64,000 nt of DNA, taken from IMG/VR virus record IMGVR_UViG_3300024331_000007, positions 256,001-320,000 of that record. The stretch is one strand, 5' to 3'. The translations under genes were made by a program, and so were the position numbers. The notes beneath the pieces were generated by a model that made no database searches, was not told the origin of the DNA, and worked only from the letters and a program-made list of their open reading frames with translations. The stretch is from a virus. Its lineage: Duplodnaviria; Caudoviricetes. Numbering within the stretch: position 1 is the stretch's first letter; each line of letters starts with the position of its first letter. Below, in pieces: positions 1-27,526 of the stretch.

Positions 1-202
1 CCTCTTCGTCGGACATTTTTCTAATGTTGCGTGAAGCTTTCTGAGCACCATCGTTAAATCTTGAGGTTTGAGTCAGAACAGCCAGCCCCAATGTTTCTCT
101 GACTGATGAAACTTTTCCAGTCTCCATAAATGGTTCACGAAGATTGTGCCGCCAATATACCATATCACCACTGGCTAGCTCTACCCCATCAACATCTTTC
201 AT
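1..202 (-). CDS. KOW/SH3-like small protein, family A (3' end runs off the window)
   Basis: Manual translation MKDVDGVELASGDMVYW...RNIRKMSDEE; ATG at 202 overlaps the upstream stop (ATGA); paralogous to 420-653 and 650-874. Confidence 0.8.
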   Translation of the reverse strand, partial: MKDVDGVELASGDMVYWRHNLREPFMETGKVSSVRETLGLAVLTQTSRFNDGAQKASRNIRKMSDEE

Positions 203-423
203 GAGTGTTCCAACTTCCACAGCATTGCTTTCTCGTCAGATAATTTTACAAGTTTGTTAGGTGGAATATAAAACGTATAAGAGAGTATATCATCGTCCAA
301 AATACTAATGTTTGGGAACTCTACTTGCGCCATTTTGGTTTTTCTATTCATAGCCTGAACAACACCAATCATACTTTTCTTTTGACGATGTTTACATCTA
401 ACAATATCACCCTTATTAATCAT
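199..423 (-). CDS. KOW/SH3-like small protein, family A, with LWKLE tail
   Basis: MINKGDIVRC...KLSDEKAMLWKLEHS; start 423 chosen from ATGA overlap. Confidence 0.8.
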   Translation of the reverse strand: MINKGDIVRCKHRQKKSMIGVVQAMNRKTKMAQVEFPNISILDDDILSYTFYIPPNKLVKLSDEKAMLWKLEHS

Positions 424-653
424 GCGTTTTCCAACTTCCACAGCATCATAATTTCAGGAGATGCTTTTTTTAAATTTGTGAGGTATTTGGTCATCACTTT
501 GTCTGCTCTTACATCAGTAACGTCAATCCATTCTCCACTTGAGTATGATGATGTTACTGTTCCTAATCTGTTGTATGAGAAATTTTCTTCATCACTCATC
601 TTCCACAAGACCAAATCCCCGTAATCAAGTTTATTATTGTCAACGTCTTTCAT
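420..653 (-). CDS. KOW/SH3-like small protein, family A, with LWKLE tail
   Basis: MKDVDNNKLDYGDLVLW...EIMMLWKLENA; start 653 from ATGA overlap. Confidence 0.8.
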   Translation of the reverse strand: MKDVDNNKLDYGDLVLWKMSDEENFSYNRLGTVTSSYSSGEWIDVTDVRADKVMTKYLTNLKKASPEIMMLWKLENA

Positions 654-874
654 ACGTTTTCTAGCTGCCACAGCATTGCCTCTTCGTCGGACATTTTTCG
701 TACATTGATAGGAAGCTTTTCCACTAACATACGATTAGTTGTTCGAATGGTTAAATAAGGAGTTTCCTGCGGCGATCCTACAATTCCGATACTGCTAAAG
801 GAATTATATTCTCCGTTAATTCTGTACCAAACTATGTCTCCCACTTCCAGTATTTTTCCGTCGGTATCTTTCAC
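650..874 (-). CDS. KOW/SH3-like small protein, family A
   Basis: MKDTDGKILEVGDIVWY...KMSDEEAMLWQLENV; GTG start overlapping the upstream stop. Confidence 0.8.
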   Translation of the reverse strand: MKDTDGKILEVGDIVWYRINGEYNSFSSIGIVGSPQETPYLTIRTTNRMLVEKLPINVRKMSDEEAMLWQLENV

Positions 875-1101
875 GCGCTCTCCAATTTTGTTACCATATT
901 ATGAAGGATAGTTCTGGCAGCACGATACCAGCATTGTTCTTCACTGGTAAAACTATATTCAATTGCCTTTTCGCTGGTTGTATTCGGATCAACGTTTTCG
1001 GGAAAAATCATATACCACTCGCCCATTGATTCGGATCGGGTATGGCATTTGCAGTTTGGATAAACTGCTTGGACTATTGCTTTGTGTTCTTCAATATTCA
1101 T
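871..1101 (-). CDS. YP-AW-KLE family small protein (family B)
   Basis: IVQAVYPNC...QCWYRAARTILHNMVTKLESA. Confidence 0.85.
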   Translation of the reverse strand: MNIEEHKAIVQAVYPNCKCHTRSESMGEWYMIFPENVDPNTTSEKAIEYSFTSEEQCWYRAARTILHNMVTKLESA

Positions 1102-1427
1102 TATGACGCTTTCTTACTTCTTCGAAAAATAATCGGTGATCGCGGTTTGTCTTGTGTATTACCTTCAAGCTGATACATGATTTCTTCGTCAATGTGTTGG
1201 CGAATTTCCTTCCAAGTTTTTCGCCAGTCATCGTGACCATCCGTGCGATAGACAATCCCTAAAAGATTGCCTTTAATTTCGTCAGTGGCGTTTGAAACAT
1301 CATACACAGCCATGTTCCTTTCCCACCATCGTTTTATTTCTATTTTTGTGTACATGTTGCGAATGTATCGTTCATTCTCATCCATGTCTCCATCACCAAA
1401 CCAACCACCATCTTCAAAAATTGCCAT
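1101..1427 (-). CDS. Diverged, extended family B-like protein
   Basis: YIRNMY...LLG...WKEIRQHIDEEIMYQLEG; coupled to neighbours. Confidence 0.7.
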   Translation of the reverse strand: MAIFEDGGWFGDGDMDENERYIRNMYTKIEIKRWWERNMAVYDVSNATDEIKGNLLGIVYRTDGHDDWRKTWKEIRQHIDEEIMYQLEGNTQDKPRSPIIFRRSKKAS

Positions 1428-1630
1428 TAGCTCTCCAATTCTTCCAGCATATCTTTACGCAATGTTCTGGCGGCACTTCTCCATGCAACAGTATTCGAAT
1501 ATCCACTATAGCCCAAAACCTTTAGTCCGATTGGATCAGCGTATATCACGTATTTGACTCTTTCAACTTTGTTGTCTTCGTCACAGAATGCTTTTTTATA
1601 CACACTCCTGACGAATGATTTATTTGTCAT
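1427..1630 (-). CDS. Family B small protein
   Basis: MTNKSFVRSVY...AWRSAARTLRKDMLEELES. Confidence 0.85.
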   Translation of the reverse strand: MTNKSFVRSVYKKAFCDEDNKVERVKYVIYADPIGLKVLGYSGYSNTVAWRSAARTLRKDMLEELES

Positions 1631-1845
1631 GATTTTAAATGTGCCAGCATCTTGCGTCCCATATCAACAACGGCATCTTTCCATGCAAGATGTGGAGTTG
1701 GCCCCCACCCCATTATATTCCTGATTCCCTTTCTGCTTGTTTGAACATATACAACGTACTTATCAAACAGAATGTTATCATTCTTGCCTTTCAACTCACA
1801 TACTGCTGAGGGATAGACATTCAAATATTTGTCTTTATATGTCAT
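1627..1845 (-). CDS. Family B small protein
   Basis: YLNVYPSA...GWGPTPHLAWKDAVVDMGRKMLAHLKS. Confidence 0.85.
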   Translation of the reverse strand: MTYKDKYLNVYPSAVCELKGKNDNILFDKYVVYVQTSRKGIRNIMGWGPTPHLAWKDAVVDMGRKMLAHLKS

Positions 1846-2051
1846 TCTTTTTCCAGAATCGATACCATTTTCTTTCCAATTGCTTCAGCGGCCATGTCCC
1901 ATGCTTTTTCTTCGCTCTCCATATCGTACCCGATCATGTTTGGCGCTAATCCACCAAAATCATAGATCAAATAATACGAACCAGACGGAGATGGAATTTC
2001 TCGGCATTCCGCCTGTGGGCAAGCACCCATCACTACTTTTTTGTTTTTCAT
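1842..2051 (-). CDS. Family B small protein
   Basis: VVMGACPQA...EEKAWDMAAEAIGKKMVSILEKE. Confidence 0.85.
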   Translation of the reverse strand: MKNKKVVMGACPQAECREIPSPSGSYYLIYDFGGLAPNMIGYDMESEEKAWDMAAEAIGKKMVSILEKE

Positions 2052-2269
2052 TTTTCAAACCTTTCCAACATTGAATTTTTGATTTTATCCGCAGCGTACT
2101 TCCAAACTCTTTTCGGTGGTCCCGGTATCAACTGATTAGATATAACTGAATCGCCGTTCCTTATGTAATACAATTGGTTTAATTTCGCATGGTATCCAGA
2201 AGCCCCAAAGGTTGTTATTGCAAGTCTAGCCTTTGGATATATGCTCAGCACCAATTCCTTATTAGTCAC
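2048..2269 (-). CDS. Family B small protein
   Basis: MTNKELVLSIYPKA...VWKYAADKIKNSMLERFEK. Confidence 0.85.
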   Translation of the reverse strand: MTNKELVLSIYPKARLAITTFGASGYHAKLNQLYYIRNGDSVISNQLIPGPPKRVWKYAADKIKNSMLERFEK

Positions 2270-2486
2270 TGTTACCCTCTAACTTTCTGAGCATTGTCAG
2301 TTGAATAGTTTCCCATGATGTTTTCCAAGCATCTCTGCTGGATGTTCCATAACCCAATAGTTGATGCATCCGTGTTCCGTTTTTGCCCATCCACGTATAA
2401 TACACTCTCCACTGCCGTTTATCACCAACTACTTGTTTGCATGTGGAATTTGGATGAACTCGCAGTACATAATCTCTTGCTGTCAT
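2262..2486 (-). CDS. Family B small protein
   Basis: VLRVHPNS...GYGTSSRDAWKTSWETIQLTMLRKLEG. Confidence 0.85.
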   Translation of the reverse strand: MTARDYVLRVHPNSTCKQVVGDKRQWRVYYTWMGKNGTRMHQLLGYGTSSRDAWKTSWETIQLTMLRKLEGNSD

Positions 2487-2698
2487 GCAGCCTCTAACTG
2501 TGAAAGCATTTTTTGCCTGAATGTTTCAGCAACCTGTTTCCATGCATCTTCTTCGCTCATATAACTGTGACCAACAATGTATTCGCGATTGTGACCATCC
2601 ATTGCATAAATCACATACATGGATTCGGCGTCTGTATACTCTTGGAGCATACATATCGCAGTGGGTAATACGGATTGAACAAACTTTTTCTCACTCAT
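2483..2698 (-). CDS. Family B small protein
   Basis: MSEKKFVQSVLPTA...SEEDAWKQVAETFRQKMLSQLEAA. Confidence 0.85.
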   Translation of the reverse strand: MSEKKFVQSVLPTAICMLQEYTDAESMYVIYAMDGHNREYIVGHSYMSEEDAWKQVAETFRQKMLSQLEAA

Positions 2699-2916
2699 CT
2701 GGTTAACTCTCTTAACATCAATTCCTGAATAACTTTTGCTGCGCTATACCAAGCCTCTTCCTCTGTTCTTCCCATTCCAATCAAATCAGTTCGTGCGCCT
2801 TCTATTGTTCGACCCAATTCGTATATTCCAAATCCTCTTCCACCAACATACACTCGACCAAAGATTGCGTCGGCAAATGGAAACGTTGCATGAACAACAG
2901 CCATATCATCTACCAT
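2695..2916 (-). CDS. Family B small protein
   Basis: MVDDMAVVHATFPFA...GMGRTEEEAWYSAAKVIQELMLRELTR; start moved to 2916. Confidence 0.8.
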   Translation of the reverse strand: MVDDMAVVHATFPFADAIFGRVYVGGRGFGIYELGRTIEGARTDLIGMGRTEEEAWYSAAKVIQELMLRELTR

Positions 2917-3164
2917 TCTAGTTTCTTCATCATTTTTCTTGTAATAACATTCCATGCATTTTCCCATGCTTTCGGTTGAGATTTTGTGCTGTATCCGATC
3001 CACACTTTCCCAAATTCATCTCCATAAATTTGGTAATGGACTGTATTGTCATCGAATGTCAATTTCATGCATCCAGCGTCGGGATATACCGCAACAACAT
3101 TCTGTTGACTATCAGTATTTAATCCAGCCATTTTTTCAATAGTTGCTGGGGTTCTGTGATTCAC
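2910..3164 (-). CDS. Family B small protein
   Basis: VVAVYPDA...PKAWENAWNVITRKMMKKLEW. Confidence 0.85.
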   Translation of the reverse strand: MNHRTPATIEKMAGLNTDSQQNVVAVYPDAGCMKLTFDDNTVHYQIYGDEFGKVWIGYSTKSQPKAWENAWNVITRKMMKKLEW

Positions 3165-3385
3165 GATTCTAACGTCTCCATCATTCTCTTTGTAATCTCA
3201 TTTGCAGCATCCTGCCATGCTTCCTTCGGAGTGCTTCCTGTTCCTAAAAGGCGCTTGTATGATGATTTTGTTCCTTTGGGTTGGCGTCGAATGAATACAC
3301 CAAAATAAATACGACCACTGGTGCTCTCGCCCTGATATAGGTAAGCTTCGGGATAAATTGATAGCACATGTGGTTTGGCTTTCAT
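3161..3385 (-). CDS. Family B small protein
   Basis: MKAKPHVLSIYPEA...GTGSTPKEAWQDAANEITKRMMETLES; start 3385. Confidence 0.85.
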   Translation of the reverse strand: MKAKPHVLSIYPEAYLYQGESTSGRIYFGVFIRRQPKGTKSSYKRLLGTGSTPKEAWQDAANEITKRMMETLES

Positions 3386-3573
3386 TGTTCCAGTTTCTGC
3401 ACCATTCTTTTGCAAATTCTATTTGCAGCCTGTTCCCATACAGCTTCTTCAGATTCATAGCTAATCGCCAGATACTCCGTTCCGATCCAAACCCCAAAGA
3501 ATCCTTCAAGGCTTTGATCTGTCACAAGTCTTACGTTTGGGTATGCTGCTTTTACTATGTCTTTATTCATCAA
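3382..3573 (-). CDS. Family B small protein
   Basis: IVKAAYPNV...SEEAVWEQAANRICKRMVQKLEQ. Confidence 0.85.
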   Translation of the reverse strand: MMNKDIVKAAYPNVRLVTDQSLEGFFGVWIGTEYLAISYESEEAVWEQAANRICKRMVQKLEQ

Positions 3574-3782
3574 TTCTCCAACTTTCTCATCATCATGCGA
3601 TTTATATCAATCGCTGCATCCTTCCACGCTTCACTTCTTGATGAATGCCATTCGTTTGATATCGGCCTGCCAGTTGAAAGATCAAAAATTGCAAAGAATG
3701 TTTTAGGCGAAAGAACAGTTGTTTCACTGGTAACACATTTTGCTTCTGGATAAACTGTTAATACCAATTTTCTGTTTTTCAC
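3570..3782 (-). CDS. Family B small protein
   Basis: VLTVYPEA...SEAWKDAAIDINRMMMRKLEN. Confidence 0.85.
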   Translation of the reverse strand: MKNRKLVLTVYPEAKCVTSETTVLSPKTFFAIFDLSTGRPISNEWHSSRSEAWKDAAIDINRMMMRKLEN

Positions 3783-3994
3783 GATGCAAGTGTCCTGAGT
3801 ATTTCGTAGTTCAAATTATCCGCTGCTGCTTGCCACGCCATTTCTTTTGTGGTTGACTTTCGCATATTACGCCAGCACATTGAAAGGTTTGTCCCATCAC
3901 TTGTGCGAACAAACCACTGTTTACTGACACGAACGCTCTGAATGCATTTAGCATCTGGGTACAATGACAACACGAATTTTTGTTCTGGTATCAT
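3779..3994 (-). CDS. Family B small protein
   Basis: MIPEQKFVLSLYPDA...EMAWQAAADNLNYEILRTLAS; start 3994. Confidence 0.85.
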   Translation of the reverse strand: MIPEQKFVLSLYPDAKCIQSVRVSKQWFVRTSDGTNLSMCWRNMRKSTTKEMAWQAAADNLNYEILRTLAS

Positions 3995-4206
3995 CCTTCT
4001 AATTTCTTCAAAAATTGTTTTTGAACCATATCGTAGCTCTTTTGCCATGCTAGGCTTTCCTGTTTGTCGTCCGAATCAAGGTAGTATCTGTCGCCATGCT
4101 CATAATAACAAATGATTACAAATGAATCAGTTACTGATGGTTTTAAAAACCATACAGCCTGTGCCGTTGGATACATCTTCAATAAAGAACGTTTTGCGTT
4201 TTTCAT
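3991..4206 (-). CDS. Family B small protein
   Basis: LLKMYPTA...SLAWQKSYDMVQKQFLKKLEG. Confidence 0.85.
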   Translation of the reverse strand: MKNAKRSLLKMYPTAQAVWFLKPSVTDSFVIICYYEHGDRYYLDSDDKQESLAWQKSYDMVQKQFLKKLEG

Positions 4207-4412
4207 GCTTCCAGCTTTTCCAATGCCAGTCTTCCAAGTTCATTTCGAGCAAATTCCCACGCTGTGTTAGGTTTCAATGATGGACCGCCCATCATTGTAG
4301 GGAATCGAGTAGGCAGAGCCACATAGTAAAAGAATCTTTGACCACCAAAAGACTTTACTTTTCTGAGTTTGGCTTCTGGAAAACTCTGTAGAACTATTTG
4401 TCTTGCTGTCAT
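4203..4412 (-). CDS. Family B small protein
   Basis: VLQSFPEA...TAWEFARNELGRLALEKLEA. Confidence 0.85.
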   Translation of the reverse strand: MTARQIVLQSFPEAKLRKVKSFGGQRFFYYVALPTRFPTMMGGPSLKPNTAWEFARNELGRLALEKLEA

Positions 4413-4651
4413 TACGACTCCAGTTTCTTAACCATCTTTTTTCCAATCCCCGCAGCCGCATCTTTCCATGCTCCAGCACGAGATGTCTGATGATAACCAA
4501 GAATTTGCATGTTCTTGTTCTCATCAATGTAAGATATCATAAATCCTTTGCCATTATTGAATATCGGACGACAATGAGCATTCTTGTATGAGGCGCGGGC
4601 TACGTTTCGTTCAGCTACCGCCTGTACTTCGTTTTTCGTCGTTGTCATCAA
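4412..4651 (-). CDS. Family B small protein
   Basis: VARASYKNA...GAWKDAAAGIGKKMVKKLES. Confidence 0.85.
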   Translation of the reverse strand: MMTTTKNEVQAVAERNVARASYKNAHCRPIFNNGKGFMISYIDENKNMQILGYHQTSRAGAWKDAAAGIGKKMVKKLES

Positions 4652-4869
4652 TTCTCCAACTTTAATAAGAAGTCATTCTTTATTTCTTCTGCTGCTGTCA
4701 TCCACGCATCAGGTTCATTTATGAAACTGCTTCCGACCGTGTCAAGAATATCAGTGGTTCTGCTATTCTGAAACACCGTAAACGAACCCCACAGATACTT
4801 ACATACTGCATTTGGATAAACACCAAGAACTACATTTCTAGCCTCGATAAAATCGTTGTAATAGCTCAT
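4648..4869 (-). CDS. Family B small protein
   Basis: VLGVYPNA...EPDAWMTAAEEIKNDFLLKLEN. Confidence 0.85.
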   Translation of the reverse strand: MSYYNDFIEARNVVLGVYPNAVCKYLWGSFTVFQNSRTTDILDTVGSSFINEPDAWMTAAEEIKNDFLLKLEN

Positions 4870-5099
4870 GATTCCAACTTCTTCAATAATTTTTGGCCCA
4901 TAACCTGTTTAGCCCAATACACAGAATTTCTCCAAGCCAATATTTCATTTTTTTGACTTGCTCCCAGATTGTCAATTTGAGTTCCATAATCAAAATATAT
5001 GATATACCACCGCGTTGTTTTCCCGCGATATGTATTATTAACTGCTACACATCTGGCACTTGGAAAATGTAGTTTGACAAATTTTTCGGCCCTAGTCAT
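4866..5099 (-). CDS. Family B small protein
   Basis: FVKLHFPSA...EILAWRNS...KLLKKLES. Confidence 0.85.
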   Translation of the reverse strand: MTRAEKFVKLHFPSARCVAVNNTYRGKTTRWYIIYFDYGTQIDNLGASQKNEILAWRNSVYWAKQVMGQKLLKKLES

Positions 5100-5102
5100 G
5101 CA

Positions 5103-5300
5103 TCAAAAACCTTTCAGGATTGAGCGAAAGATGGATCGAAGCACTGCACCGTTTGACGGGAGTTTATGGAAATTGTGAAAATTGTGAAAGTCATTTGGAT
5201 CAAATTCAACAAAATGCTCGTATGTAGTTTTCCCATGTACTTGTCTGAGAATCCTCTTTCCGTCCATTGTTATTTTCTGCATGGTTTCAACAGTTGTCAT
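5103..5300 (-). CDS. Small protein with C-terminal amphipathic helix
   Basis: Ends AVLRSIFRSILKGF; coupled by ATGA. Confidence 0.7.
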   Translation of the reverse strand: MTTVETMQKITMDGKRILRQVHGKTTYEHFVEFDPNDFHNFHNFHKLPSNGAVLRSIFRSILKGF

Positions 5301-5488
5301 CTGATTCCAAACCCTTTCAGTATCGAACGACCAATTGCCAGTAAAACTTTTCCAGAAGATGGTATTACTTCAAAACATGTTATCGTAGCCTTATGTTTGC
5401 CTTTTTGAACTGTGTAAAACTGAGACACCTTATAGGTGTCTGCCATTGCCAATGGAAAAAGTTCTTTGACTCTTTGTTCGTTCGTCAT
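5297..5488 (-). CDS. Family B-like N-terminus with swapped amphipathic C-terminus
   Basis: MTNEQRVKELFPLA...KVLLAIGRSILKGFGIR; start 5488 from ATGA overlap. Confidence 0.7.
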   Translation of the reverse strand: MTNEQRVKELFPLAMADTYKVSQFYTVQKGKHKATITCFEVIPSSGKVLLAIGRSILKGFGIR

Positions 5489-5592
5489 TTTGAAATCAAA
5501 CCCTTCCAAATCACATTCAAAAGAACAGTCAACACTTTCTTGCGCGATGCTACAGGTGGGACGTATGGATTATACACTCCACCGTCCCACAT
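5485..5592 (-). CDS. 35-aa peptide with amphipathic C-terminal helix
   Basis: MWDGGVYNPYVPPVASRKKVLTVLLNVIWKGLISK; start just after the 5598 stop; tail resembles the two downstream genes. Confidence 0.5.
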   Translation of the reverse strand: MWDGGVYNPYVPPVASRKKVLTVLLNVIWKGLISK

Positions 5593-5597
5593 TTCTC

Positions 5598-6803
5598 TCA
5601 CTTCACACCCCGAAGCAAGATGCTGTCTCCGTTGATTGCTTCGCGAAGCGGAGTAGCAACGGCCTTGATTCCATTGAACCACTTGACGGCACCCGGCTTG
5701 CCATAGTTGGAAAATTCCTTCAACTGTTCGGCTGGCTTACGCAGAGTTTTTTGCACACTCTTTGTAGGATCGATGTTCGTCAAACGAGTGCTTTTGACTT
5801 CAAAAGACATTCCATTCAACGCAACATAGTGTCCTAATTTCCGAAGGCGAGTATTGTAAACCCACAATTCAGAGCATTTCAAAACTTGCGTTGCGTCAAT
5901 GCTCGTCAACTTCAATTCCTTGTACTCACGAAGAAACTTGAGTTTCGAAACAATCTTCGAGGGTGGTTTTGGTTTGCGCTGGCGAGTCTTATGCATGCTC
6001 TGCTTTTGATGACTGAACACGCTAATCTCGCTGATTGCTGTTTCCCACCATTCGATGGCCGCTTTCATCTTGCGCTTTCCTACGTGTTCATAGGACTCAG
6101 CAATTTGTGCATCTTTTCCAGCAAGTGCAGTTTTGTACTCGCTCAAATACTTCTGACAATAGTCAATCAAATCCTTTGAGCGATTCGCGGGAATTGTTGT
6201 TTCAGGGTCTTTCAGAATAGAGGAAACGGAAGGCGCTTTCTTCGCGGTTGAATAATCCGCTCCCACGAATTGATCGAATGCGTAATCCACTTCACCGCAA
6301 ACTTTACGAATCCGCGCTCTGAGATGATCCTGAATGTTTGGTTTTGATGTACTTCCTGCTTCCTTCTCTTCAATCTGCTTTTGATTAGTAAGACATTCCT
6401 TGATGAACTTCACGATGAAACGGCGTTCACGAAAACGCAGGAACAGTCCGACATGTGCCATACGCAAAACCTTGGCGACGGTAACAGAAAAAGTCAGTGT
6501 GGAATTTTTGATGGCAATAAGAAGTTCAGGAAAATGACCGCTCAAACCCAATGCGGAAAGTCCAAGTGCAATCAGTTCCTTATCTTCCTGAGTCTGTGCG
6601 TACCAGTTCAAGGCTGCGCTTAATTGTTTGTCATACTCAGTGCGAGTCCATGCCTTTTGAACATCGATAGAAGGCCACGTTGGTTCTGTTTCTCCAATGT
6701 ATTTCGCTCCCTCGCGTTTGAAATGCAAGGTACGAATGGGCTTCAAAGCCGCTGGCTGAAAAGAGCGTACAGGTCTGGAAGGCGTTTTTGCGCTGTTCTT
6801 CAT
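5598..6803 (-). CDS. Conserved T4-superfamily hypothetical protein
   Basis: 401 aa; C-terminal block ELWVYNTRLRKLGHY...SVQKTLRKPAEQLKEF recalled as conserved in large T4-like phages. Confidence 0.8.
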   Translation of the reverse strand: MKNSAKTPSRPVRSFQPAALKPIRTLHFKREGAKYIGETEPTWPSIDVQKAWTRTEYDKQLSAALNWYAQTQEDKELIALGLSALGLSGHFPELLIAIKNSTLTFSVTVAKVLRMAHVGLFLRFRERRFIVKFIKECLTNQKQIEEKEAGSTSKPNIQDHLRARIRKVCGEVDYAFDQFVGADYSTAKKAPSVSSILKDPETTIPANRSKDLIDYCQKYLSEYKTALAGKDAQIAESYEHVGKRKMKAAIEWWETAISEISVFSHQKQSMHKTRQRKPKPPSKIVSKLKFLREYKELKLTSIDATQVLKCSELWVYNTRLRKLGHYVALNGMSFEVKSTRLTNIDPTKSVQKTLRKPAEQLKEFSNYGKPGAVKWFNGIKAVATPLREAINGDSILLRGVK

Positions 6804-6809
6804 GTGCCT

Positions 6810-6838
6810 ATGATACCGAAGTTTAGAGCAAAAGTCAA
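6810..6838 (-). promoter_or_regulatory. Sigma70-type promoter for the leftward operon (predicted leaderless)
   Basis: TTGACT (6838-6833), 17 bp, TATCAT (6815-6810), then 6 nt to ATG 6803; no SD. Confidence 0.7.
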
Positions 6839-6899
6839 CGCAATCCGTAAAACCAGTGAAATCATATGCTTATTTGGCAAAATAAAATAAACTTTTTGG

Positions 6900-6928
6900 T
6901 TGCAATTCTGACCAAACTTTGCTATTCT
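6900..6928 (+). promoter_or_regulatory. Early promoter cassette 1
   Basis: TTGCAA, 17 bp, extended -10 TGcTATTCT, followed by conserved atatRRGTAGTCGAGARGGAG leader. Confidence 0.8.
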
Positions 6929-6954
6929 ATATAAGTAGTCGAGAGGGAGAAACG

Positions 6955-7272
6955 ATGAGACGGAGAGTACACACAATTGAAACCCTTCGGATGCAAGGCA
7001 AACTAAACAAAGACTTTGCAAAAACCACTCCCGACCATGCCACGGACGGAACGAAAGCCTATGATGTGATTGGCATTTCAGGTGATCATTGGCAGGTTCA
7101 CAAGCACGGATGCAGCGCAACGTTCTCCAAGCCGGGTCAAGTTTTGACTGCTGATCTTGTTTGGTCCGCAAAGACAACCGATATACCCGCGCAAGTTATT
7201 GATTCTGAACTTCTTGACATGGGTTTTGACTACACTTGCGTAGTTTTCCACAATTGCACAAAGAAATATTAA
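6955..7272 (+). CDS. Hypothetical early protein
   Basis: SD GAGGGAG before ATG 6955; MRRRVHTIETL... Confidence 0.75.
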   Translation: MRRRVHTIETLRMQGKLNKDFAKTTPDHATDGTKAYDVIGISGDHWQVHKHGCSATFSKPGQVLTADLVWSAKTTDIPAQVIDSELLDMGFDYTCVVFHNCTKKY

Positions 7273-7281
7273 ACTTTTTGG

Positions 7282-7310
7282 TTGACTTTGCCGCCAAAGT
7301 TTGATATTCT
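7282..7310 (+). promoter_or_regulatory. Early promoter cassette 2
   Basis: TTGACT, 17 bp, TGaTATTCT; same leader as cassette 1. Confidence 0.85.
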
Positions 7311-7335
7311 ATATGGGTAGTCGAGAAGGAGCCAC

Positions 7336-7563
7336 ATGAGCTACAAAGCAGCGATTAAGGTCGGTCTCGGAAACGAACGTAGCTACAACTCTCTGCGCTT
7401 TGCAACTCCCGAAGAAGCAACGGCCTATGCGAAGAATTTGTTCTCTCGCTGGATGCTCATGACTGGTTTTGAAGTCGAACCCTCTGAGGATGCCGTGAAC
7501 TATGTGTGGGAAAACAATGTACTTACGGCAATTGCCGTTACAAACCCACCGATCAGTGTATAA
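7336..7563 (+). CDS. Conserved phage hypothetical protein
   Basis: AAGGAG SD; NSLRFATPEEATAYA...RW...SEDAVNY. Confidence 0.8.
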   Translation: MSYKAAIKVGLGNERSYNSLRFATPEEATAYAKNLFSRWMLMTGFEVEPSEDAVNYVWENNVLTAIAVTNPPISV

Positions 7564-7591
7564 CCAATCTCAATATTCGGGAGAACAAACG

Positions 7592-7855
7592 ATGCGCCCA
7601 CTCAAGTTTGAAGGTGTTGCTGAAGTTGGAGACAAGATTCGCGCCTATGATTTTGAACCTATGGAGGGGCGTCCTGACCGCTATATCGAGGGCGTCGTTC
7701 GTGAAGTTGTTCAATGGGTTCGCGCTGGTGGATACAAAGCATATGACATTGTTCTGACATATGACAGCATGGGCGGAAGGCCAATAGGCACAGCAATTTA
7801 CGTTCCAATGGAAATTGGAATGGACTTCGACATTCGAGTTCAGAAAATCAGTTAA
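7592..7855 (+). CDS. Conserved phage hypothetical protein (SH3-like)
   Basis: GGGAG SD; MRPLKFEGVAEVGDKIRAYDF...YIEGVV. Confidence 0.8.
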   Translation: MRPLKFEGVAEVGDKIRAYDFEPMEGRPDRYIEGVVREVVQWVRAGGYKAYDIVLTYDSMGGRPIGTAIYVPMEIGMDFDIRVQKIS

Positions 7856-7903
7856 CCCCTTTGTTTCTGCACGAAAAAATGTCAGTATTTTCGCATAATT
7901 TGC

Positions 7904-7932
7904 TTGCATTCATGACCAAACTTTGATATTCT
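7904..7932 (+). promoter_or_regulatory. Early promoter cassette 3
   Basis: TTGCAT, 17 bp, TGaTATTCT; same leader. Confidence 0.8.
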
Positions 7933-7958
7933 ATATGAGTAGTCGAGAGGGAGACACA

Positions 7959-8279
7959 ATGATTGCAAACGCGAAAGTTTCTCAGAGGCTTGAAGGTTTC
8001 GTAGCAAAAGTACAGGCCGAAACACTTGCGTATTACGCCAAAAAGTTCCCTACGCTCATTCCTTCGATCATCGAAGTTGAAGAGGGCAGCAAGTTCTATC
8101 GCATCGTAAAAGCAGAGCGTGGTACACGTAGCGTTCACTCGTTTGTGTCCAAGGCGAACGGCGACATTTTCAAGGCTGCTGGTTGGAAGGCACCCGCGAA
8201 GCATGTTCGTGGCAACATCTTTGCCGCTGATTACGGCTGGTCTTCAATGAATGTGTATGGCGCGAAATATCTCCGCTAA
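7959..8279 (+). CDS. Conserved phage hypothetical protein
   Basis: GSKFYRIV...SVHSFVSKANGDIFKAAGWKAPAKHVRGNI, a widespread phage motif (recalled). Confidence 0.85.
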   Translation: MIANAKVSQRLEGFVAKVQAETLAYYAKKFPTLIPSIIEVEEGSKFYRIVKAERGTRSVHSFVSKANGDIFKAAGWKAPAKHVRGNIFAADYGWSSMNVYGAKYLR

Positions 8280-8319
8280 ACAATTTGTGTATGTCAACCG
8301 ATAGCAAAGGATTGAAGCA

Positions 8320-8598
8320 ATGACTGATCTATTTTCGGCAACGATCAAGCAATACATCTACGGAACATCAGGAACTGAACTTCCGCCGCCTGTTGAAAAA
8401 GTAAAGTCAACGACATTTTTATCTTTGCCAACTGAGACGAAAGAAGAATTCGAGCGCAAAGTCCAAGAATACGGCATGGCACTGCGCATCAAAGCTGCCA
8501 ATGTTACTCCACGGCCATATAGTCAACGAGATGGAATTGATTGGTCTATATCATGTATTGAACCTCGACCTTATGATTTTGATAGCAACGCGGAGTAA
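8320..8598 (+). CDS. Hypothetical protein
   Basis: 92-aa ORF filling the operon. Confidence 0.65.
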   Translation: MTDLFSATIKQYIYGTSGTELPPPVEKVKSTTFLSLPTETKEEFERKVQEYGMALRIKAANVTPRPYSQRDGIDWSISCIEPRPYDFDSNAE

Positions 8599-8604
8599 TC
8601 GTTT

Positions 8605-8844
8605 ATGTCTCAGCATAGCTCCGCTAAACAATTTGTGCAATCCCTTTACCCATCTGCGATATGCAAGTGGGTAAAGGTGCTTCCGAATGAGTTTGTGATT
8701 ACCGTTTCGTTTGCTGAATGGAACGGCTTTGAAAGTCGCCAATATAAAACAGTTGAATTGGAATGGGCAACAACTGCGATTGGCGCATGGTGCGCAATGC
8801 GCGAACTAATCAATGCGAAGATTATGGAGAAACTAAACTCGTGA
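8605..8844 (+). CDS. Family B small protein
   Basis: KQFVQSLYPSA...GAWCAMRELINAKIMEKLNS. Confidence 0.85.
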   Translation: MSQHSSAKQFVQSLYPSAICKWVKVLPNEFVITVSFAEWNGFESRQYKTVELEWATTAIGAWCAMRELINAKIMEKLNS

Positions 8845-9164
8845 TCGACAAAAAGATTCGCCCACTGCCGAAAAGACTTTCGAAGTTTCAAAGGATTGTT
8901 CTGGCGTCGTATCCAAACGCCCGAATCGGAAGTGCCGATGCTGTCAAGGAAACAATGAAACCTTATTGGGATCGCAAGTCTGGATTTGAGATGTTTGACA
9001 GCTTTGGTAAAACTTCGAAGTGGGCAATTTATACAGAGCCAGAAAGTGATCGAATTACAATCTTAGTTAACGTGATTGGCGTGAGTTCTAGCTCACAATC
9101 GAAGGCATGGGAAGATGCTTGCAACGTAATGGGCGCATTCATGTTGATGAAATTGGAGAAATAA
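8841..9164 (+). CDS. Family B protein with internal insertion
   Basis: GTG start 8841; IVLASYPNA...KAWEDACNVMGAFMLMKLEK. Confidence 0.8.
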   Translation: MIDKKIRPLPKRLSKFQRIVLASYPNARIGSADAVKETMKPYWDRKSGFEMFDSFGKTSKWAIYTEPESDRITILVNVIGVSSSSQSKAWEDACNVMGAFMLMKLEK

Positions 9165-9592
9165 TGGAAAAGTCCGTAATCTCGTCAGAACAAATGGATA
9201 ACTTGTGCTTTGCCAGCTATCAACTATTGCAGGCGATGAGTAATGTTTATGGTTCCGATCCTGCCTATGAAATGTTCCTCAAACTTGAGGAAGTACTAGG
9301 ACCTGAGGTTAAGGGCAATCTATTTTTGAAGATGTTAGACAGCCAATACACAGGTGCTGGCCCTATGCATTTCAAATTTCCAAATGGTCAGTGTGGAAAC
9401 GCCATTCTCATGATTCGAGGCGTCCGTGAATTTTCAGTTGACAAATATGGAAACAAATGGAGTCTGAAGGACGCCAAAGATGTTATCGACACGTCGAGGT
9501 TTGGTGGTATCGGAACAATTCATTTCATAACAGTTGGCGAGCGTAACGAATTTATCAAGCTGTTGAAGTCTAATAACGGCGTGACCATATGA
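9164..9592 (+). CDS. Protein with ribosomal L7/L12 C-terminal-domain-like motif
   Basis: ILMIRGVREFS...WSLKDAKDVID resembles the bL12 CTD IKxVRxxTGLGLKEAKxLVE; start 9164 with GGAG SD. Confidence 0.65.
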   Translation: MEKSVISSEQMDNLCFASYQLLQAMSNVYGSDPAYEMFLKLEEVLGPEVKGNLFLKMLDSQYTGAGPMHFKFPNGQCGNAILMIRGVREFSVDKYGNKWSLKDAKDVIDTSRFGGIGTIHFITVGERNEFIKLLKSNNGVTI

Positions 9593-9822
9593 GTCCGAAC
9601 GAAACAATTGTGAAGGCAGTCTATCCGAATGCAGAAATTCGGGAAGTAGCATCTGGAGTTTATCGAGTCTTTACGCAGCCAAGCGGATTTTCTAAAGATG
9701 GAGATTTGACTTTTAGCATTGGGCATTCTCTCGGCGCTTCATGTTTCACAGATACAGAAGACAAATGGAAGAATGCGGCAGATTCGATCAATTTCAAAAT
9801 GATGAGGGAACTTGAATTATGA
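9589..9822 (+). CDS. Family B small protein
   Basis: IVKAVYPNA...DKWKNAADSINFKMMRELEL. Confidence 0.85.
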   Translation: MSPNETIVKAVYPNAEIREVASGVYRVFTQPSGFSKDGDLTFSIGHSLGASCFTDTEDKWKNAADSINFKMMRELEL

Positions 9823-10031
9823 CACCAAAGCAAACAATTCAGCAAGTTTATCCACACGTAAATTGCCACAAAATAACATGGGCAATTGGATCGAACCTTC
9901 CCAGATTTCAAGTTTATGTAAATGGAATCTCAACTTCATTTGGAGTAACTCGTTACGCAGCATGGAAGGAAGCATTGGTTTGGTATAATAACGCCATTCA
10001 AAAACGGCTGCTGAGAAAGCTGGAATCATGA
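9819..10031 (+). CDS. Family B small protein
   Basis: IQQVYPHV...AAWKEAL...RLLRKLES. Confidence 0.85.
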   Translation: MTPKQTIQQVYPHVNCHKITWAIGSNLPRFQVYVNGISTSFGVTRYAAWKEALVWYNNAIQKRLLRKLES

Positions 10032-10273
10032 AAGAATATCTTCGTAATCACAATAATGTAACGATGTTTCTGAGTACGTGGGTTTCGTTTCCAATTTGTA
10101 TTCTTTTGGTTCATAACATGACCATTCCAGTAATGCCGTGGCATCTTTGTTTCAAGCTCGTTTTTCCAATGCTGGGATTTTGCTCAGTTGTATTTTTTCT
10201 GTTGGGTTGGATGACTGACGGAATGAATAGGCAGACCTTAAAGGAAGAATTTTTGCGGAAACTGGAATCGTAA
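10028..10273 (+). CDS. Two-TM membrane protein with family B tail
   Basis: Two hydrophobic segments, then KEEFLRKLES. Confidence 0.75.
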   Translation: MKEYLRNHNNVTMFLSTWVSFPICILLVHNMTIPVMPWHLCFKLVFPMLGFCSVVFFLLGWMTDGMNRQTLKEEFLRKLES

Positions 10274-10482
10274 TGTACAAAACAGAAAAATTCGTGAAGT
10301 CTGTTTTTCCAACTTCCAAAGCGTGTCCTTTATATGGAGGGACCTCGTTCATGATCGACGGATTTCCAGAAGGTTCAGGAATGAAACGATGGGACACATG
10401 GCATGAAACTGAACGAAAATCATGGAATGATGCAGCTAGACAGATACACAGAAATATGTTGAAGAAACTGGAGAATGCGTGA
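10273..10482 (+). CDS. Family B small protein
   Basis: KFVKSVFPTS...KSWNDAARQIHRNMLKKLENA. Confidence 0.85.
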   Translation: MYKTEKFVKSVFPTSKACPLYGGTSFMIDGFPEGSGMKRWDTWHETERKSWNDAARQIHRNMLKKLENA

Positions 10483-10688
10483 GCAAGGCTCAAAAATTCG
10501 TGAAGTCTCTTTATCCCGATGCGTACCTGCTAGAAACGCTATCACCTGTTGGCAATCATCGGTATCAGGTAGTGTACGATATTACTGGAACCTTTATGCC
10601 AACATGGTATTGGGCTAAAAAGAATGATGCATGGAAACAGGCTGAGTTAAGAATAAATCAGAGACTCATGGAGAAGCTAGAATCGTGA
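10479..10688 (+). CDS. Family B small protein
   Basis: KFVKSLYPDA...DAWKQAELRINQRLMEKLES. Confidence 0.85.
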   Translation: MSKAQKFVKSLYPDAYLLETLSPVGNHRYQVVYDITGTFMPTWYWAKKNDAWKQAELRINQRLMEKLES

Positions 10689-10894
10689 GAGCAAGGGATC
10701 AAGTTTTGGCGAGGTATCCAGATGCTGTGGTGTTCAAATCATCCGCCACCTGTATGTGGGAACTGTACTCAAAATTGAGAGCCAAACATTGCTTCAACGG
10801 ATTTATTGTTTGGGGATGTATGACTAAAGGATCGGCGTGGCAAGAAGGACTAGACTATCTTGACCGCGAACTTTTGAAGAAGTTGGAATCATGA
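10685..10894 (+). CDS. Family B small protein
   Basis: VLARYPDA...SAWQEGLDYLDRELLKKLES. Confidence 0.85.
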   Translation: MRARDQVLARYPDAVVFKSSATCMWELYSKLRAKHCFNGFIVWGCMTKGSAWQEGLDYLDRELLKKLES

Positions 10895-11130
10895 CAGATA
10901 AAGAATTTGTTCAAACCACATATCCCGATGCTGTAATGAGAACTAAAGATTTCTTTGGTCTTAACAAATTAGGCACTGACGAAAACATCTACGCAATTTT
11001 TCGCGGGGATCGAAAGAAAGCCAAACGAAACCATGCAATAACAATGTTCTGGACTAAGACGGAAGACGATGCATGGAAGCAAGCAGCCGCTTACCTACGA
11101 CAACAATTTTTGAAGAAGTTGGAATCATGA
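10891..11130 (+). CDS. Family B small protein
   Basis: MTDKEFVQTTYPDA...EDDAWKQAAAYLRQQFLKKLES. Confidence 0.85.
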   Translation: MTDKEFVQTTYPDAVMRTKDFFGLNKLGTDENIYAIFRGDRKKAKRNHAITMFWTKTEDDAWKQAAAYLRQQFLKKLES

Positions 11131-11327
11131 CTGATAAGCAGTTTGTACTCTCAATCCACGACGACGCATTTGCATCTGAGAGCAATATTTCGGGCTTCAT
11201 AGTAATCTATGACGATAACCTGCAATTCCACCAACTCAGTCAATACTGGATCATTGAAGAGGATGCGTGGAAGGATGCAGCAGATCGACTGAGGGAAAGA
11301 TTTCTGGAAAAATTGGAAAGCCAATGA
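11127..11327 (+). CDS. Family B small protein
   Basis: MTDKQFVLSIHDDA...EEDAWKDAADRLRERFLEKLESQ; start 11127. Confidence 0.85.
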   Translation: MTDKQFVLSIHDDAFASESNISGFIVIYDDNLQFHQLSQYWIIEEDAWKDAADRLRERFLEKLESQ

Positions 11328-11536
11328 CAGATAAGCAATTTGTAAAATCAGTTTGTCCGACTGCCCATCTGCGTAATACGCAGAAAAGTAAAACTGTTTT
11401 TTGGTATATTGACACTCGCCTAAAAGGTGCTTACTGGCCTAAAAAAATCTCAGGAGAGTTTATTATCAAGGGCGATGCGTGGAAACATGCAGCAGAAAGA
11501 CTTCGTATGGACATGTTAAGGAAACTTGAATCATGA
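11324..11536 (+). CDS. Family B small protein
   Basis: MTDKQFVKSVCPTA...DAWKHAAERLRMDMLRKLES; start 11324. Confidence 0.85.
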   Translation: MTDKQFVKSVCPTAHLRNTQKSKTVFWYIDTRLKGAYWPKKISGEFIIKGDAWKHAAERLRMDMLRKLES

Positions 11537-11775
11537 CGGAGGAAGCTGAACTCGCAAAACAGTTTGTGCTATCCATTTATGCTGGAGCTAAATTTGTGCG
11601 AAGAGAGGAGATGCCCAACATAGATGCATTCGCACCAACACCCGACGATTGCCAAATTATGGATGCGGATAGGCGTCATTCTTTAGCTATGAAATGGTCC
11701 TACAATGAAAATGATGCTTGGATTGACGCCCGAAATTTTATCAACTTCAAAATGATGCAGAGGTTGGAATCATGA
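11533..11775 (+). CDS. Family B small protein
   Basis: KQFVLSIYAGA...ENDAWIDARNFINFKMMQRLES. Confidence 0.85.
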   Translation: MTEEAELAKQFVLSIYAGAKFVRREEMPNIDAFAPTPDDCQIMDADRRHSLAMKWSYNENDAWIDARNFINFKMMQRLES

Positions 11776-11998
11776 ATCCGTTCGAAGCAGTTGATTACGT
11801 CCGAGGAATATATCCGTTTGCTTATTGCAAGGAAACCTTTTCCTATGGGAAAAGGGGTTTCGTTATTATGGACGCGGAACGCGGCTCAGGTCATGACGAA
11901 GAATTTTTAACTGGATGGAGCTATACCACAAGAGAACAGGCGTGGGTGAAGCTGTGAGATACATTCATCTCAACATGCTTAGGAAGTTTGAATCATGA
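11772..11998 (+). pseudogene. Frameshifted family B member (1-nt deletion near 11946, or sequencing error)
   Basis: ORF stops at 11957 after EQAWVKL; adding one base gives EQAWVEAVRYIHLNMLRKFES, ending at the ATGA junction 11995-11998. Confidence 0.75.
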
Positions 11999-12216
11999 CT
12001 GACAAGGAGTTTGTTATATCAGCTTATCCCAATGCCGAATGCGATGACAGTCGGCTATTATTTGACCGTAATGGCGTTTTCATGTATGCAATTTATTTGG
12101 CGGGTAGCAAACCTCGTTCAAGTATTTCGGCAATGTGGGCGGAATCCGAAGAACAGGCATGGAAGGAGGCAGCGGACATTATCAGATATGATCTTCTGAG
12201 GAAGTTTGAGTCATGA
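11995..12216 (+). CDS. Family B small protein
   Basis: MTDKEFVISAYPNA...SEEQAWKEAADIIRYDLLRKFES. Confidence 0.85.
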   Translation: MTDKEFVISAYPNAECDDSRLLFDRNGVFMYAIYLAGSKPRSSISAMWAESEEQAWKEAADIIRYDLLRKFES

Positions 12217-12413
12217 ACGAAGACATGGAATTTGTAAAACGATTGTATCCAACCGCAGTGTATGATTCTCATGCATTTTGGGTTTGTGCGGACACAATTG
12301 AGGCTGGTAAGAAACGCACATATATTTTAGGTATCGGTGGAAATGCAAAGAATGGTTGGACCCATGCAGCGCAACACCTTCGTAATAGGGTGTTGCGCCA
12401 ATTTGAAAGTTAA
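12213..12413 (+). CDS. Family B small protein
   Basis: FVKRLYPTA...GIGGNAKNGWTHAAQHLRNRVLRQFES. Confidence 0.85.
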   Translation: MNEDMEFVKRLYPTAVYDSHAFWVCADTIEAGKKRTYILGIGGNAKNGWTHAAQHLRNRVLRQFES

Positions 12414-13897: not shown

Positions 13898-13902
13898 ACC
13901 CG

Positions 13903-26042: not shown

Positions 26043-27061
26043 TACAAGCCCTTGTAAATCTCCAGAAGAAGATTGGAATCATAGAACTCACTGGAAATAT
26101 TTAGTAACTGCCCTTGTACGATTGTATCAACGGATTGAAATTGAATATTACCTCCCGGTGCTAAATCGTCGCTGTGTAAATCTTTCTTCATTGTTACCAA
26201 ACTGAGTTCGCGAAGTTCGTATTCCTCAATTAAATTCTCTTTGAGATATGTCGCTTCTTCATATGAAACATCTGTATCTAAAAACAGCTTTATATATCCC
26301 TGACGAGGGAGAATTGAAGGATCGGAAACTAGATCGCTTATTTTCATAGTGCGATATTTTGGTGCTTTGGGCCACGGAATATATGTTGGTTCCTCACCCC
26401 ACGGCAGAATCATCATGCCACGATTGTCATCGCCTGCATCACCGAAGTTGTGCGGGAATGCATTACCAATGTATGATATATTACCTCGATGCTGACGCAT
26501 GTGGAAGTGACCCGTAAACACATGATGGTATTCCGAAAATTGATCGGCTCGCAACTCTCCGACTTCTGGCATTTCTACCATAGCATTCATCAAAAATTTT
26601 GGAAGCTCGAAGTGACCAAACATGTATGTGCCTTTCTTCTTAAAAAGCTGTTTATGCTCATTGCCAATTAACCACGGCACAAACACAACATCATCAATTG
26701 TTTCGATATCATTGATGATTTTAATGTTTGGAATATGTTCAGCCCATGCAATGCTGCTGATTGATCTTTGGTCACGATAGAAAAGGTCATGGTTACCGGG
26801 AAGCATGATAATACGATCAAATGCATCGCTCAGGATACGCAAACCCCGCAGGCCATAATTCATTGTAACCAGATTTGTGTTGTTTCGATTGTGAAAATAA
26901 TCTCCGAGAAACAGACAAATGTCACATCCGTTTTTTTGTGCCTCGCCCACAAACCAGTCCATATAATCAAGACAATCTTGATTGTGAAGTTGGCTGTTCG
27001 TTTTAAGACCCATGTGAATATCTGTAAAAACTGCCGCTTTCTTGAATAGTTGTGTCATCAT
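26042..27061 (-). CDS. gp47: Recombination endonuclease nuclease subunit (SbcD/Mre11-like)
   Basis: Metallophosphoesterase motifs DIH, GDYFH, GNHD, GHFE, GHFH. Confidence 0.95.
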   Translation of the reverse strand: MMTQLFKKAAVFTDIHMGLKTNSQLHNQDCLDYMDWFVGEAQKNGCDICLFLGDYFHNRNNTNLVTMNYGLRGLRILSDAFDRIIMLPGNHDLFYRDQRSISSIAWAEHIPNIKIINDIETIDDVVFVPWLIGNEHKQLFKKKGTYMFGHFELPKFLMNAMVEMPEVGELRADQFSEYHHVFTGHFHMRQHRGNISYIGNAFPHNFGDAGDDNRGMMILPWGEEPTYIPWPKAPKYRTMKISDLVSDPSILPRQGYIKLFLDTDVSYEEATYLKENLIEEYELRELSLVTMKKDLHSDDLAPGGNIQFQSVDTIVQGQLLNISSEFYDSNLLLEIYKGL

Positions 27062-27300
27062 TCCTCAAATTTTTCTAATGTCTTTTCTAAAATACGTTGC
27101 CATACATCTTCCCATACATCATCTTCATTTGAATGCCAACCAGATGCCGAAAAATATGTTCGCCAGTTGATATTTGGGTCATCATATGGCTCTTTCATAA
27201 GGCAATAATCTGTTATGTCTCCCTCCGCATCGTAATGCACATGGATAAAACAATTGGGGTATATTGCCAAAATCTTGTTTTTAGTTTCTTCTACATCCAT
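27058..27300 (-). CDS. Family B small protein
   Basis: MDVEETKNKILAIYPNC...EDDVWEDVWQRILEKTLEKFEE; start 27300. Confidence 0.8.
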   Translation of the reverse strand: MDVEETKNKILAIYPNCFIHVHYDAEGDITDYCLMKEPYDDPNINWRTYFSASGWHSNEDDVWEDVWQRILEKTLEKFEE

Positions 27301-27301
27301 A

Positions 27302-27526
27302 CTAGTTCTCAAACTTATCCAGCATTGATTCTTGAATCCAAAACCATGCTTGTTTCCAAGCCATCCTTTCTGTTTTATGCCAGCCACTGTACTGCATCGA
27401 TCCATATCCCAAAGTTGATACAAGTTTTTGGTTAGTTTTGGTTTCAAATATACAATATTCTCCCGTCCAACGCCAGCATTGTGCGGTTGGGTAAATTTCC
27501 AAAACCTTATTTTTGTTGCTTCGCAT
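27302..27526 (-). CDS. Family B small protein
   Basis: KVLEIYPTA...ERMAWKQAWFWIQESMLDKFEN. Confidence 0.85.
   Translation of the reverse strand: MRSNKNKVLEIYPTAQCWRWTGEYCIFETKTNQKLVSTLGYGSMQYSGWHKTERMAWKQAWFWIQESMLDKFEN

Follow-up and report, generated by a model that had tools for sequence, protein, structure and literature searches.

An 82-member family of small proteins with a predicted dsRBD-like fold in two divergent gene arrays of a soil jumbo myovirus

T4-like phages and SPO1 carry blocks of small early "host-takeover" or hyperplastic-region genes, most of which are unrelated ORFans. Tandem arrays of more than 30 similar genes were described in the jumbo phages G and 121Q (Hua et al. 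2017, PMC5646251; cited in the review PMC13282480), and multigene families or genomic accordions occur in large DNA viruses, for example poxvirus K3L and the giant-virus ankyrin, BTB, and F-box genes, where the expansions are thought to serve adaptation to host defences (PMC13359090). Here, a family of ~70-amino-acid (aa) proteins encoded in two divergent gene arrays, or arms, was analyzed in a 64,000-nucleotide stretch of DNA (the whole of which is called the window) that covers bases 256,001-320,000 of the IMG/VR record IMGVR_UViG_3300024331_000007. The record is a linear viral sequence of 359,890 bp, estimated to be ~90% complete, and the sequencing runs listed as carrying it comprise four of soil-metagenome DNA and none of RNA. 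The phage is a jumbo myovirus, the baseplate-wedge protein of which shares 30-37% identity with its counterparts in Atu_ph07, XaC1, SCTP-2, Phosso, and the RaK2/K64-1 group. No DNA-level match to deposited phages was found by megablast for window positions 5500-13900, and tblastn of one family member against deposited phages gave a chance-level match only.

The locus resembles the T4-like and SPO1 blocks in its long runs of packed small open reading frames (ORFs) behind predicted host-type promoters between core modules, and differs from them in that a single fold recurs 82 times and another 34 times. With phages G and 121Q it shares the setting of a jumbo myophage with more than 30 tandem paralogues of unknown function, read there as expansion by duplication; 121Q is one of the RaK2-like phages, which are distant relatives of the phage studied here. 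By their description, however, the genes of phages G and 121Q are "very similar," whereas the paralogues here share ~25-35% identity and are older than the phage split. A paralogue family of RaK2 itself (10 copies, ~95 aa) was considered as a distant homologue and rejected as unrelated (hhalign probability, 0.3%). As in genomic accordions, one gene family is expanded at one locus in a lineage-specific manner, here from 0 to 69 copies, but here the copies are ancient and keep their order between phages, each is under purifying selection, and there is no sign of recent amplification.

The runs are formed by ORFs of 60-90 codons ending in ...KLES in the ORF list, and a common skeleton is visible in the alignment of 31 of them. 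A family hidden Markov model (HMM), iterated over all stop-to-stop ORFs of the whole genome with a threshold of E ≤ 1e-3, converged on 82 members, most of them with E values of 1e-12 to 1e-21; reversed and shuffled ORF sets gave 0 matches at this threshold (best E, 0.4-0.6). The family occupies 18.6 kb, corresponding to 5.2% of the genome. The two arms hold 69 copies, 55 on the minus arm and 14 on the plus arm, and the rest comprises three copies at window positions 27058-27768 and 10 scattered ones. The minus arm extends ~11 kb to the left of the window and spans genome positions 245,614-261,099 with its 55 members in total. Family genes in the window are the following:

871..5099, minus strand, window part of the minus arm, 18 family genes of 62-78 aa (HMM E, 1e-12 to 4e-21)
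8605..12413, plus strand, plus arm, 14 family genes (HMM E, 4e-10 to 6e-21)
11772..11997, plus strand, frameshifted family member, a full-length copy with a 1-nt frameshift (three-frame translation)
27058..27768, minus strand, three further coupled members outside the arms (HMM E, 7e-15 to 1e-19)

The original prediction had counted about 33 paralogues in two arms. Its 18 minus-arm and 14 plus-arm genes and their coordinates hold, the additional "diverged member" at 1101-1427 is unsupported, and the array, although real, was understated, with 82 members genome-wide and a minus arm running past the window. The ORF at 1101-1427 (E, 0.31), a non-family ORF inside the minus arm that is translationally coupled on both sides, and the ORF at 10028-10273 (E, 1.9) match only in the C-terminal tail and therefore are not supported members. 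The latter (81 aa, plus strand) is one of two non-family ORFs interrupting the plus arm, the other being 9164-9592 (142 aa); it is strongly hydrophobic, ends in ...EEFLRKLES, is otherwise unlike the family, and probably encodes a membrane-spanning product. The coupling through ATGA/GTGA overlaps that had been noticed in the window was recovered across the arms, where 4-nt overlaps are present at 38 of 68 junctions and 1-nt overlaps at 4 of 68; on the plus arm, ATGA/GTGA overlaps account for 10 of 13 junctions.

In the frameshifted member, the reading frame (11772-11957) breaks after ...REQAW by a 1-nt frameshift at GCGTGGGTGAAGC, and the last 17 codons (GEAVRYIHLNMLRKFES) lie in another frame, still ending in the TCATGA overlap of the next gene. 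An intact 75-aa orthologue of this member is P0059, from metagenomes. The frameshift could reflect a recent pseudogene or an assembly error, programmed frameshifting being less likely. Fragments of members were located at genome positions 230913, 247343, and 253046, and these broken copies together indicate some birth-and-death turnover.

The protein family is previously undescribed, in agreement with the initial failure to recognize a named family. Searches of Pfam (8, then 69 members, E ≤ 1), PHROGs, and NCBIfam returned no consistent family match, PADLOC profiles gave no match for 26 members, and neither Pfam dsrm (PF00035) nor HicA or HicB matched any of the 69 members at E ≤ 1. A sequence-profile search of the PDB yielded chance rows only (e.g., streptavidin), with no double-stranded RNA-binding domain (dsRBD) at E ≤ 10, and no described family was found in a literature search. 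The family profile detected no member in Atu_ph07, XaC1, Phosso, and RaK2 and one marginal partial match (E, 0.002) in SCTP-2. Against 1.84 billion cluster representatives, formed at 50% identity, the profile matched 1,135 proteins at E ≤ 1e-3, 64 of them at E ≤ 1e-10; two of the top matches are low-complexity artefacts, and nearly all others among the top 150 are proteins of 63-93 aa with the same skeleton. The ten homologues that were looked up come from metagenomes only, none is named beyond "hypothetical protein," and every homologue context inspected is phage-like. A few homologues carry two or three domains in tandem, one such protein ending in a membrane anchor at its C terminus, and a two-domain homologue lies inside a Mu/P2-like tail module. 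On a 90-kb metagenome contig (L020:8001-9482), a 493-aa homologue combines three tandem domains with a C-terminal multi-helix membrane region, an architecture that shows the domain to occur also displayed on a membrane anchor.

The conservation pattern was derived from per-column entropy over the 82 copies. The N-terminal conserved stretch reads M-T-x-K-x-x-V-x-x-(I/V)-Y-P-x-A, with conserved columns K4, V7 (74/82), Y/F11, P12 (76/82), and A14, and the C-terminal one (T/S)-E-x-x-A-W-x-x-A-(A/W)-x-x-I-x-x-x-M-L-x-K-L-E-S, with conserved columns A51, W52 (79/79), A55, I59, M63, L64, K66, L67, E68, and S69. Between them, there are a few semi-conserved hydrophobic columns (16, 27, 29, 30, 40, and 41) in a variable middle of 23-61 residues that is enriched in Trp (2.4-fold), Tyr (2.0-fold), and Cys (1.7-fold). 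Only W52 and the initiator Met are invariant, with no conserved His and no other catalytic candidate. The core-like conserved columns are 7, 10, 11, 14, 51, 52, 55, 56, 59, 63, 64, and 67 in the helices and 16, 27, and 29 in the strands; they recur with i, i+3/4, i+7 spacing along the helices and at every other residue of the strands, and because of this periodicity, from which burial is deduced, they are taken as a hydrophobic-core pattern. The remaining columns exceed 3 bits of entropy, and those of the β1-β2 loop, which varies in length, exceed 3.5 bits. Judged from sequence, nearly all positions predicted to be exposed vary between paralogues, helix exteriors included, as do the lengths of both β loops. 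The pI is bimodal (4.8-9.9), about half of the members being basic (pI > 9) and half acidic (pI ~5), and the start of α2 is mostly acidic, with 96 D/E versus 41 K/R in columns 48-50. Column 56 separates subtypes, with Trp in most of the upstream minus-arm copies and Ala in the window part of that arm and in the plus arm. The entropy profile bears out the conserved scaffold with a hypervariable middle, and the skeleton proposed from the window is real in the 82-copy columns except for its "G-x-(G/S)" element, which is weakly conserved (G in 23/81); the variability is not confined to the β loops, as had been supposed.

An AlphaFold2 model from the 69-copy alignment reached a pLDDT (per-residue model confidence) of 96.5 and a pTM (global model confidence) of 0.81 and placed the elements H3-10, E15-20, E26-33, E39-45, and H49-70, giving the α-β-β-β-α arrangement that had been predicted; the ESM Atlas own model of the same protein has a pTM of 0.73. 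Foldseek searches of the PDB, AFDB clusters, and BFVD gave nothing significant. The best PDB row was SPO1 Acb4 with 3'3'-cGAMP (E, 0.057; TM score, 0.46; not significant), followed by dsRBDs. In an exhaustive VIA-align search, nearly all of the ~40 top rows were dsRBDs (Z 5-7; root mean square deviation, 2.3-4 over 56-66 residues), and Acb4 was absent from the top 50. The uniformity of this list supports a dsRBD-like arrangement, where, by the calibration of the method, Z values below 8 show arrangement and not common ancestry. The ESM Atlas feature search scored 0.80-0.83, below a meaningful level, and a two-copy homodimer prediction returned a score of 0.00, a nonverdict that weighs neither for nor against self-association.

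With the dsRBD (PF00035 dsrm), the modeled family shares the α1-β1-β2-β3-α2 topology, the size of ~70 aa, and the placement of both helices on one sheet face. Its nearest solved structures are the dsRBDs of RNase III, Dicer, ADAR1, and Staufen (Z 5-7), a list that also contains the protein-binding, not RNA-binding, Staufen dsRBD5 and PACT D3 dimer. It differs in the absence of any sequence match, of the basic N terminus of α2, and of the dsRNA-contact loop motifs, and in being made of stand-alone proteins in 82 copies with the signature YPxA...AWxxAA. The HicA toxin and the N-terminal domain of the HicB antitoxin are likewise small dsRBD-like α/β domains, and the HicB-type helix entry, G-x-T-x-E-E-A...A-I...L-E, resembles (T/S)-E-E-x-A-W-x-x-A-A-x-x-I of the family. 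Unlike HicA and HicB, the phage family lacks a Pfam match and a conserved catalytic His and forms homogeneous arrays rather than toxin-antitoxin pairs.

The paralogues are old. Members share a median identity of 33% with their closest paralogue in the genome, and at most ~46% over the full length, whereas a comparison with the related locus L013 gave 33 reciprocal-best orthologue pairs that are perfectly collinear and 40-90% identical. Together these values give no sign of recent, accordion-type amplification. In a joint tree, the nearest tip belongs to another phage for 58 of 77 members, so most duplications are older than the divergence of these phages. In related phages, each paralogue has been maintained as a separate orthologous lineage. 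Orthologues are 85% identical in scaffold columns and 50% in variable columns, compared to 60% and 9% between paralogues. The dN is 0.09 in scaffold and 0.45 in variable columns, with 0.11 in the neighbouring 401-aa "hinge" gene at the head of the minus arm, and omega is 0.08-0.11 and 0.19-0.34, respectively, at saturated dS. The dS of 1.1-2.4 makes dN/dS indecisive with respect to positive selection. The variable core is inherited and constrained within each lineage and evolves about four times faster than its surroundings. The original prediction of an antibody-like library was wrong on tempo, since the set is old and orthologue preserving, as seen from the 33% median paralogue identity, the 33 collinear orthologues, and the variable-site omega of ~0.2-0.3.

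The hinge gene, which has 659 homologues and is present in all relatives, was used as a locus marker. A related-locus search with the hinge protein alone returned nothing, and with a 3-sequence hinge alignment it returned 2 IMG/VR and 3 metagenome loci only. The loci compared, with their hinge identity and family members, are as follows:

This genome, reference hinge gene: 55 + 14 members
L013, 84%: at least 41 members in the same order; contig ends
L022, L042, L043, and L045, 58-60%: 15 + 15 members in the same two-arm layout between ~500-aa and ~400-aa genes
L049, 56%: at least 41 + 6 members
L050, 54%: 3 members
L051 and L052, 34-38%: 0 members

The comparison of copy number and array structure that had been suggested as a check thus gave 0, 3, 30, at least 47, and 69 copies by lineage at the same locus, and differences were seen only against phages with 34-60% hinge-gene identity. 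In L051 and L052, the hinge homologue lies between T4 gp15-like and gp13-like/sheath genes, i.e., in the neck/tail module, with no arrays nearby, from which the arrays appear as a lineage-specific expansion around that gene.

Between the arms, outward-facing sigma70-type promoter-like elements were found, in line with the earlier remark that both arms face away from a promoter cluster:

5598..6803, minus strand, 401-aa hinge gene, head of the minus arm (phrog_11903; E, 1e-49)
6810..6838, minus strand, sigma70-like promoter, TTGACT-17-TATCAT; the -10 box ends 6 nt before the hinge ATG
6895..6958, plus strand, promoter/leader element copy 1, 64 nt (repeat search)
7277..7340, plus strand, promoter/leader element copy 2, 64 nt (repeat search)
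7899..7962, plus strand, promoter/leader element copy 3, upstream of the DUF7717 gene, gene 8320-8598, and then the plus arm

The element at 6810-6838 may serve as the promoter of the minus-arm operon. Promoters of this type stand before the hinge gene in 7 of 7 lineages compared, including those without arrays. In four lineages (G000, L013, L022, and L050) its -10 hexamer ends 6 nt before the hinge ATG, which suggests a leaderless mRNA, and the distant hinge homologues in L051 and L052 have a normal leader with GGAG. The 64-nt element consists of TTGnnn, 17 nt, TGnTATTCT, the leader ATATnnGTAGTCGAGAGGGAG, and ATG, with a GAGG Shine-Dalgarno sequence, an inverted repeat TTTGGT...ACCAAA around the -35 box, and the invariant leader GTAGTCGAGAGG. 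About 10 copies are present genome-wide, others including those at genome positions 140650, 200507, and 201096, and they could represent a regulated early-promoter class. Copy 3 is predicted to drive the DUF7717 gene (7959-8279), gene 8320-8598, and then the plus arm. The T4-type late promoter TATAAATA has 21 copies genome-wide, none informative for the arms. On these features, early expression of the arms is plausible.

The K-L-E-S tail forms the end of helix α2 in the model, where M63, L64, and L67 show core-like periodicity. Its codons, ...(T/C)TG GAR TCA TGA, place GGAR 6-9 nt before the next ATG and create the ATGA overlap, and they appear to double as the ribosome-binding site of the next gene. 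G is the third base of the tail Leu codon in 30 of 43 cases versus 39% genome-wide (P = 1e-4), and GAG is overused. Of the 23 members not followed by a coupled start, 11 retain the tail; this and the variation in synonymous codons mean that the peptide and the RNA are both under constraint. Members with and without a coupled downstream start did not differ significantly in having the LE tail (40/59 versus 11/23, P = 0.13). Multidomain homologues have no tail between domains.

A second family, unrelated to the ~70-aa proteins, counts 34 copies genome-wide, including some at genome 67-70.5 kb. Its members have a β-rich "GD.V" body and a C-terminal helix ...EEAML(Y/W)KLEN(A), the ML-x-KLE-type tail being common to both families, and four of them are inserted in the minus arm:

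2..874, minus strand, four second-family members (iterated HMM, no overlap with the main family)

In relatives, one second-family member carries a precomputed Pfam match to eIF-1a.

Judged solely from fold, size, composition, and variation pattern, the arrays may encode a stable, hard-wired toolkit of stand-alone mini-binders on a dsRBD-like scaffold with many targets, most likely host proteins, a reading that we favour tentatively and hold at a little short of an even chance. Each copy would be a stoichiometric mini-binder with its specificity in the exposed Trp/Tyr-rich sheet face and the loops. The host RNA polymerase would express the whole set jointly, probably shortly after infection, and the products would act on many different host proteins, possibly also on the phage's own, in host takeover or counter-defence, without the members being canonical dsRNA binders. 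Several observations weigh against this. The variation spans all exposed positions without a single patch, which fits a family sharing only foldability, and the enrichment in Trp, Tyr, and Cys is partly ordinary for β strands. Omega below 1 with saturated dS gives no positive sign of an arms race at this distance. The structural matches stay under Z 8, below the ancestry level. The case for early timing is weakened by the occurrence of the same promoter type before the hinge gene where arrays are absent, and the arms adjoin a gene that in distant relatives belongs to the neck/tail module.

That last position raises the alternative that the proteins are directed to the phage itself, as virion-associated or injected proteins or as accessory factors in assembly or regulation of the neck/tail module that are co-expressed with the hinge gene. 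The minus arm is directly downstream of and co-directional with the hinge gene, the neighbour of gp15-like, gp13-like, and sheath genes in distant relatives; a two-domain homologue sits within a Mu/P2-like tail module; and the unrelated second family shares the C-terminal tail, possibly as a docking signal of both families. Only 0-3 copies, however, are present in relatives that have these structural genes, so virion building does not require the family; 82 different small subunits would be unprecedented in tail or neck structures; and the conservation of the tail is partly explained by ribosome-binding-site and overlap constraints. We regard this alternative as improbable, if the least so among the rivals.

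Slightly less credit is given to a largely neutral or selfish expansion, in which the conserved junctions (...KLES stop/MTxKEFV) promote unequal recombination and the copies, multiplying and drifting with little function of their own, fill the genome of an enlarged capsid. Tandem duplication has been proposed as jumbo-capsid filling (Hua et al. 2017, PMC5646251), the copy number ranges from 0 to 69 between lineages, and the frameshifted copy at 11772-11997 and the three genomic fragments are decaying. Such an expansion is at odds with collinear orthologues and an omega of 0.2-0.3 even at variable sites, which are 50% identical in orthologues against a 9% background. The synonymous codons vary at the junctions, so there is no DNA-level homogenization, and paralogues at 33% identity are not recent amplicons.

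Nucleic-acid binding, with dsRBD-like domains attached to structured RNA, dsRNA, or DNA and paralogues differing in preference, is marginally less probable again. The dsRBDs being the nearest solved folds and the basic half of the members (pI > 9) speak for it, but the other half is acidic (pI ~5), dsrm matches 0 of 69 members at E ≤ 1, the KKxAK-type basic start of α2 is replaced by a mostly acidic (T/S)-E-E-x-A-W, and no conserved GPxH-like loop is present, the β1-β2 loop varying in length and sequence. Sponges of the Acb type directed against CBASS (cyclic-oligonucleotide-based antiphage signaling), i.e., oligomeric mini-proteins sequestering immune nucleotides or other small-molecule signals of the host, are very improbable, because the Acb4 match that brought them up as the best Foldseek PDB row is not significant and lies outside the top 50 VIA-align rows, no surface residues are conserved across members for a common ligand pocket, and 82 copies are hard to reconcile with a handful of known signals.

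Returning to the mini-binder toolkit, a bolder form of it, which we consider unlikely, holds that more than 80 mini-binders and the second, 34-copy scaffold are co-expressed from the coupled operons, each neutralizing a different host defence or housekeeping target, with the size of the set tracking host defence diversity; the phage would then carry a germline-encoded counterpart of a fixed binder library, and the ML-x-KLE tail found in both families might in addition act as a docking or handling signal. If the members are specific binders, the clade would offer about a thousand natural, ~70-aa, confidently folding scaffold variants, their targets would map vulnerable points and defences of poorly known soil bacteria, and the locus would be a clear case of phage genome gigantism through the expansion of one family. 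Whatever its function, the family merits an entry in profile databases, where ~1,135 clusters are nameless. Its array is old, stable, and orthologue preserving, a dated case that contrasts with recent accordion amplifications, and its C terminus appears to illustrate how folding and the signal that couples translation to the following gene can together shape the end of a protein.

Among the neighbouring genes, the hinge protein was modeled by AlphaFold2 with a pLDDT of 86 and a pTM of 0.41, and Foldseek found no match for it in the PDB and Swiss-Prot models. No family was assigned to the genes 6955-7272, 7338-7563, and 8320-8598 near the DUF7717 gene. A 495-aa gene at window positions 12410-13897 on the minus strand, at the convergent end of the plus arm, has no Pfam or PHROG match and has 502-508-aa counterparts in the same place in L022, L049, and L050. 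The DUF7717 gene, 7959-8279 on the plus strand, encodes a 106-aa protein (Pfam E, 2.3e-15) and occupies the same place between the arms in L022 and L049.

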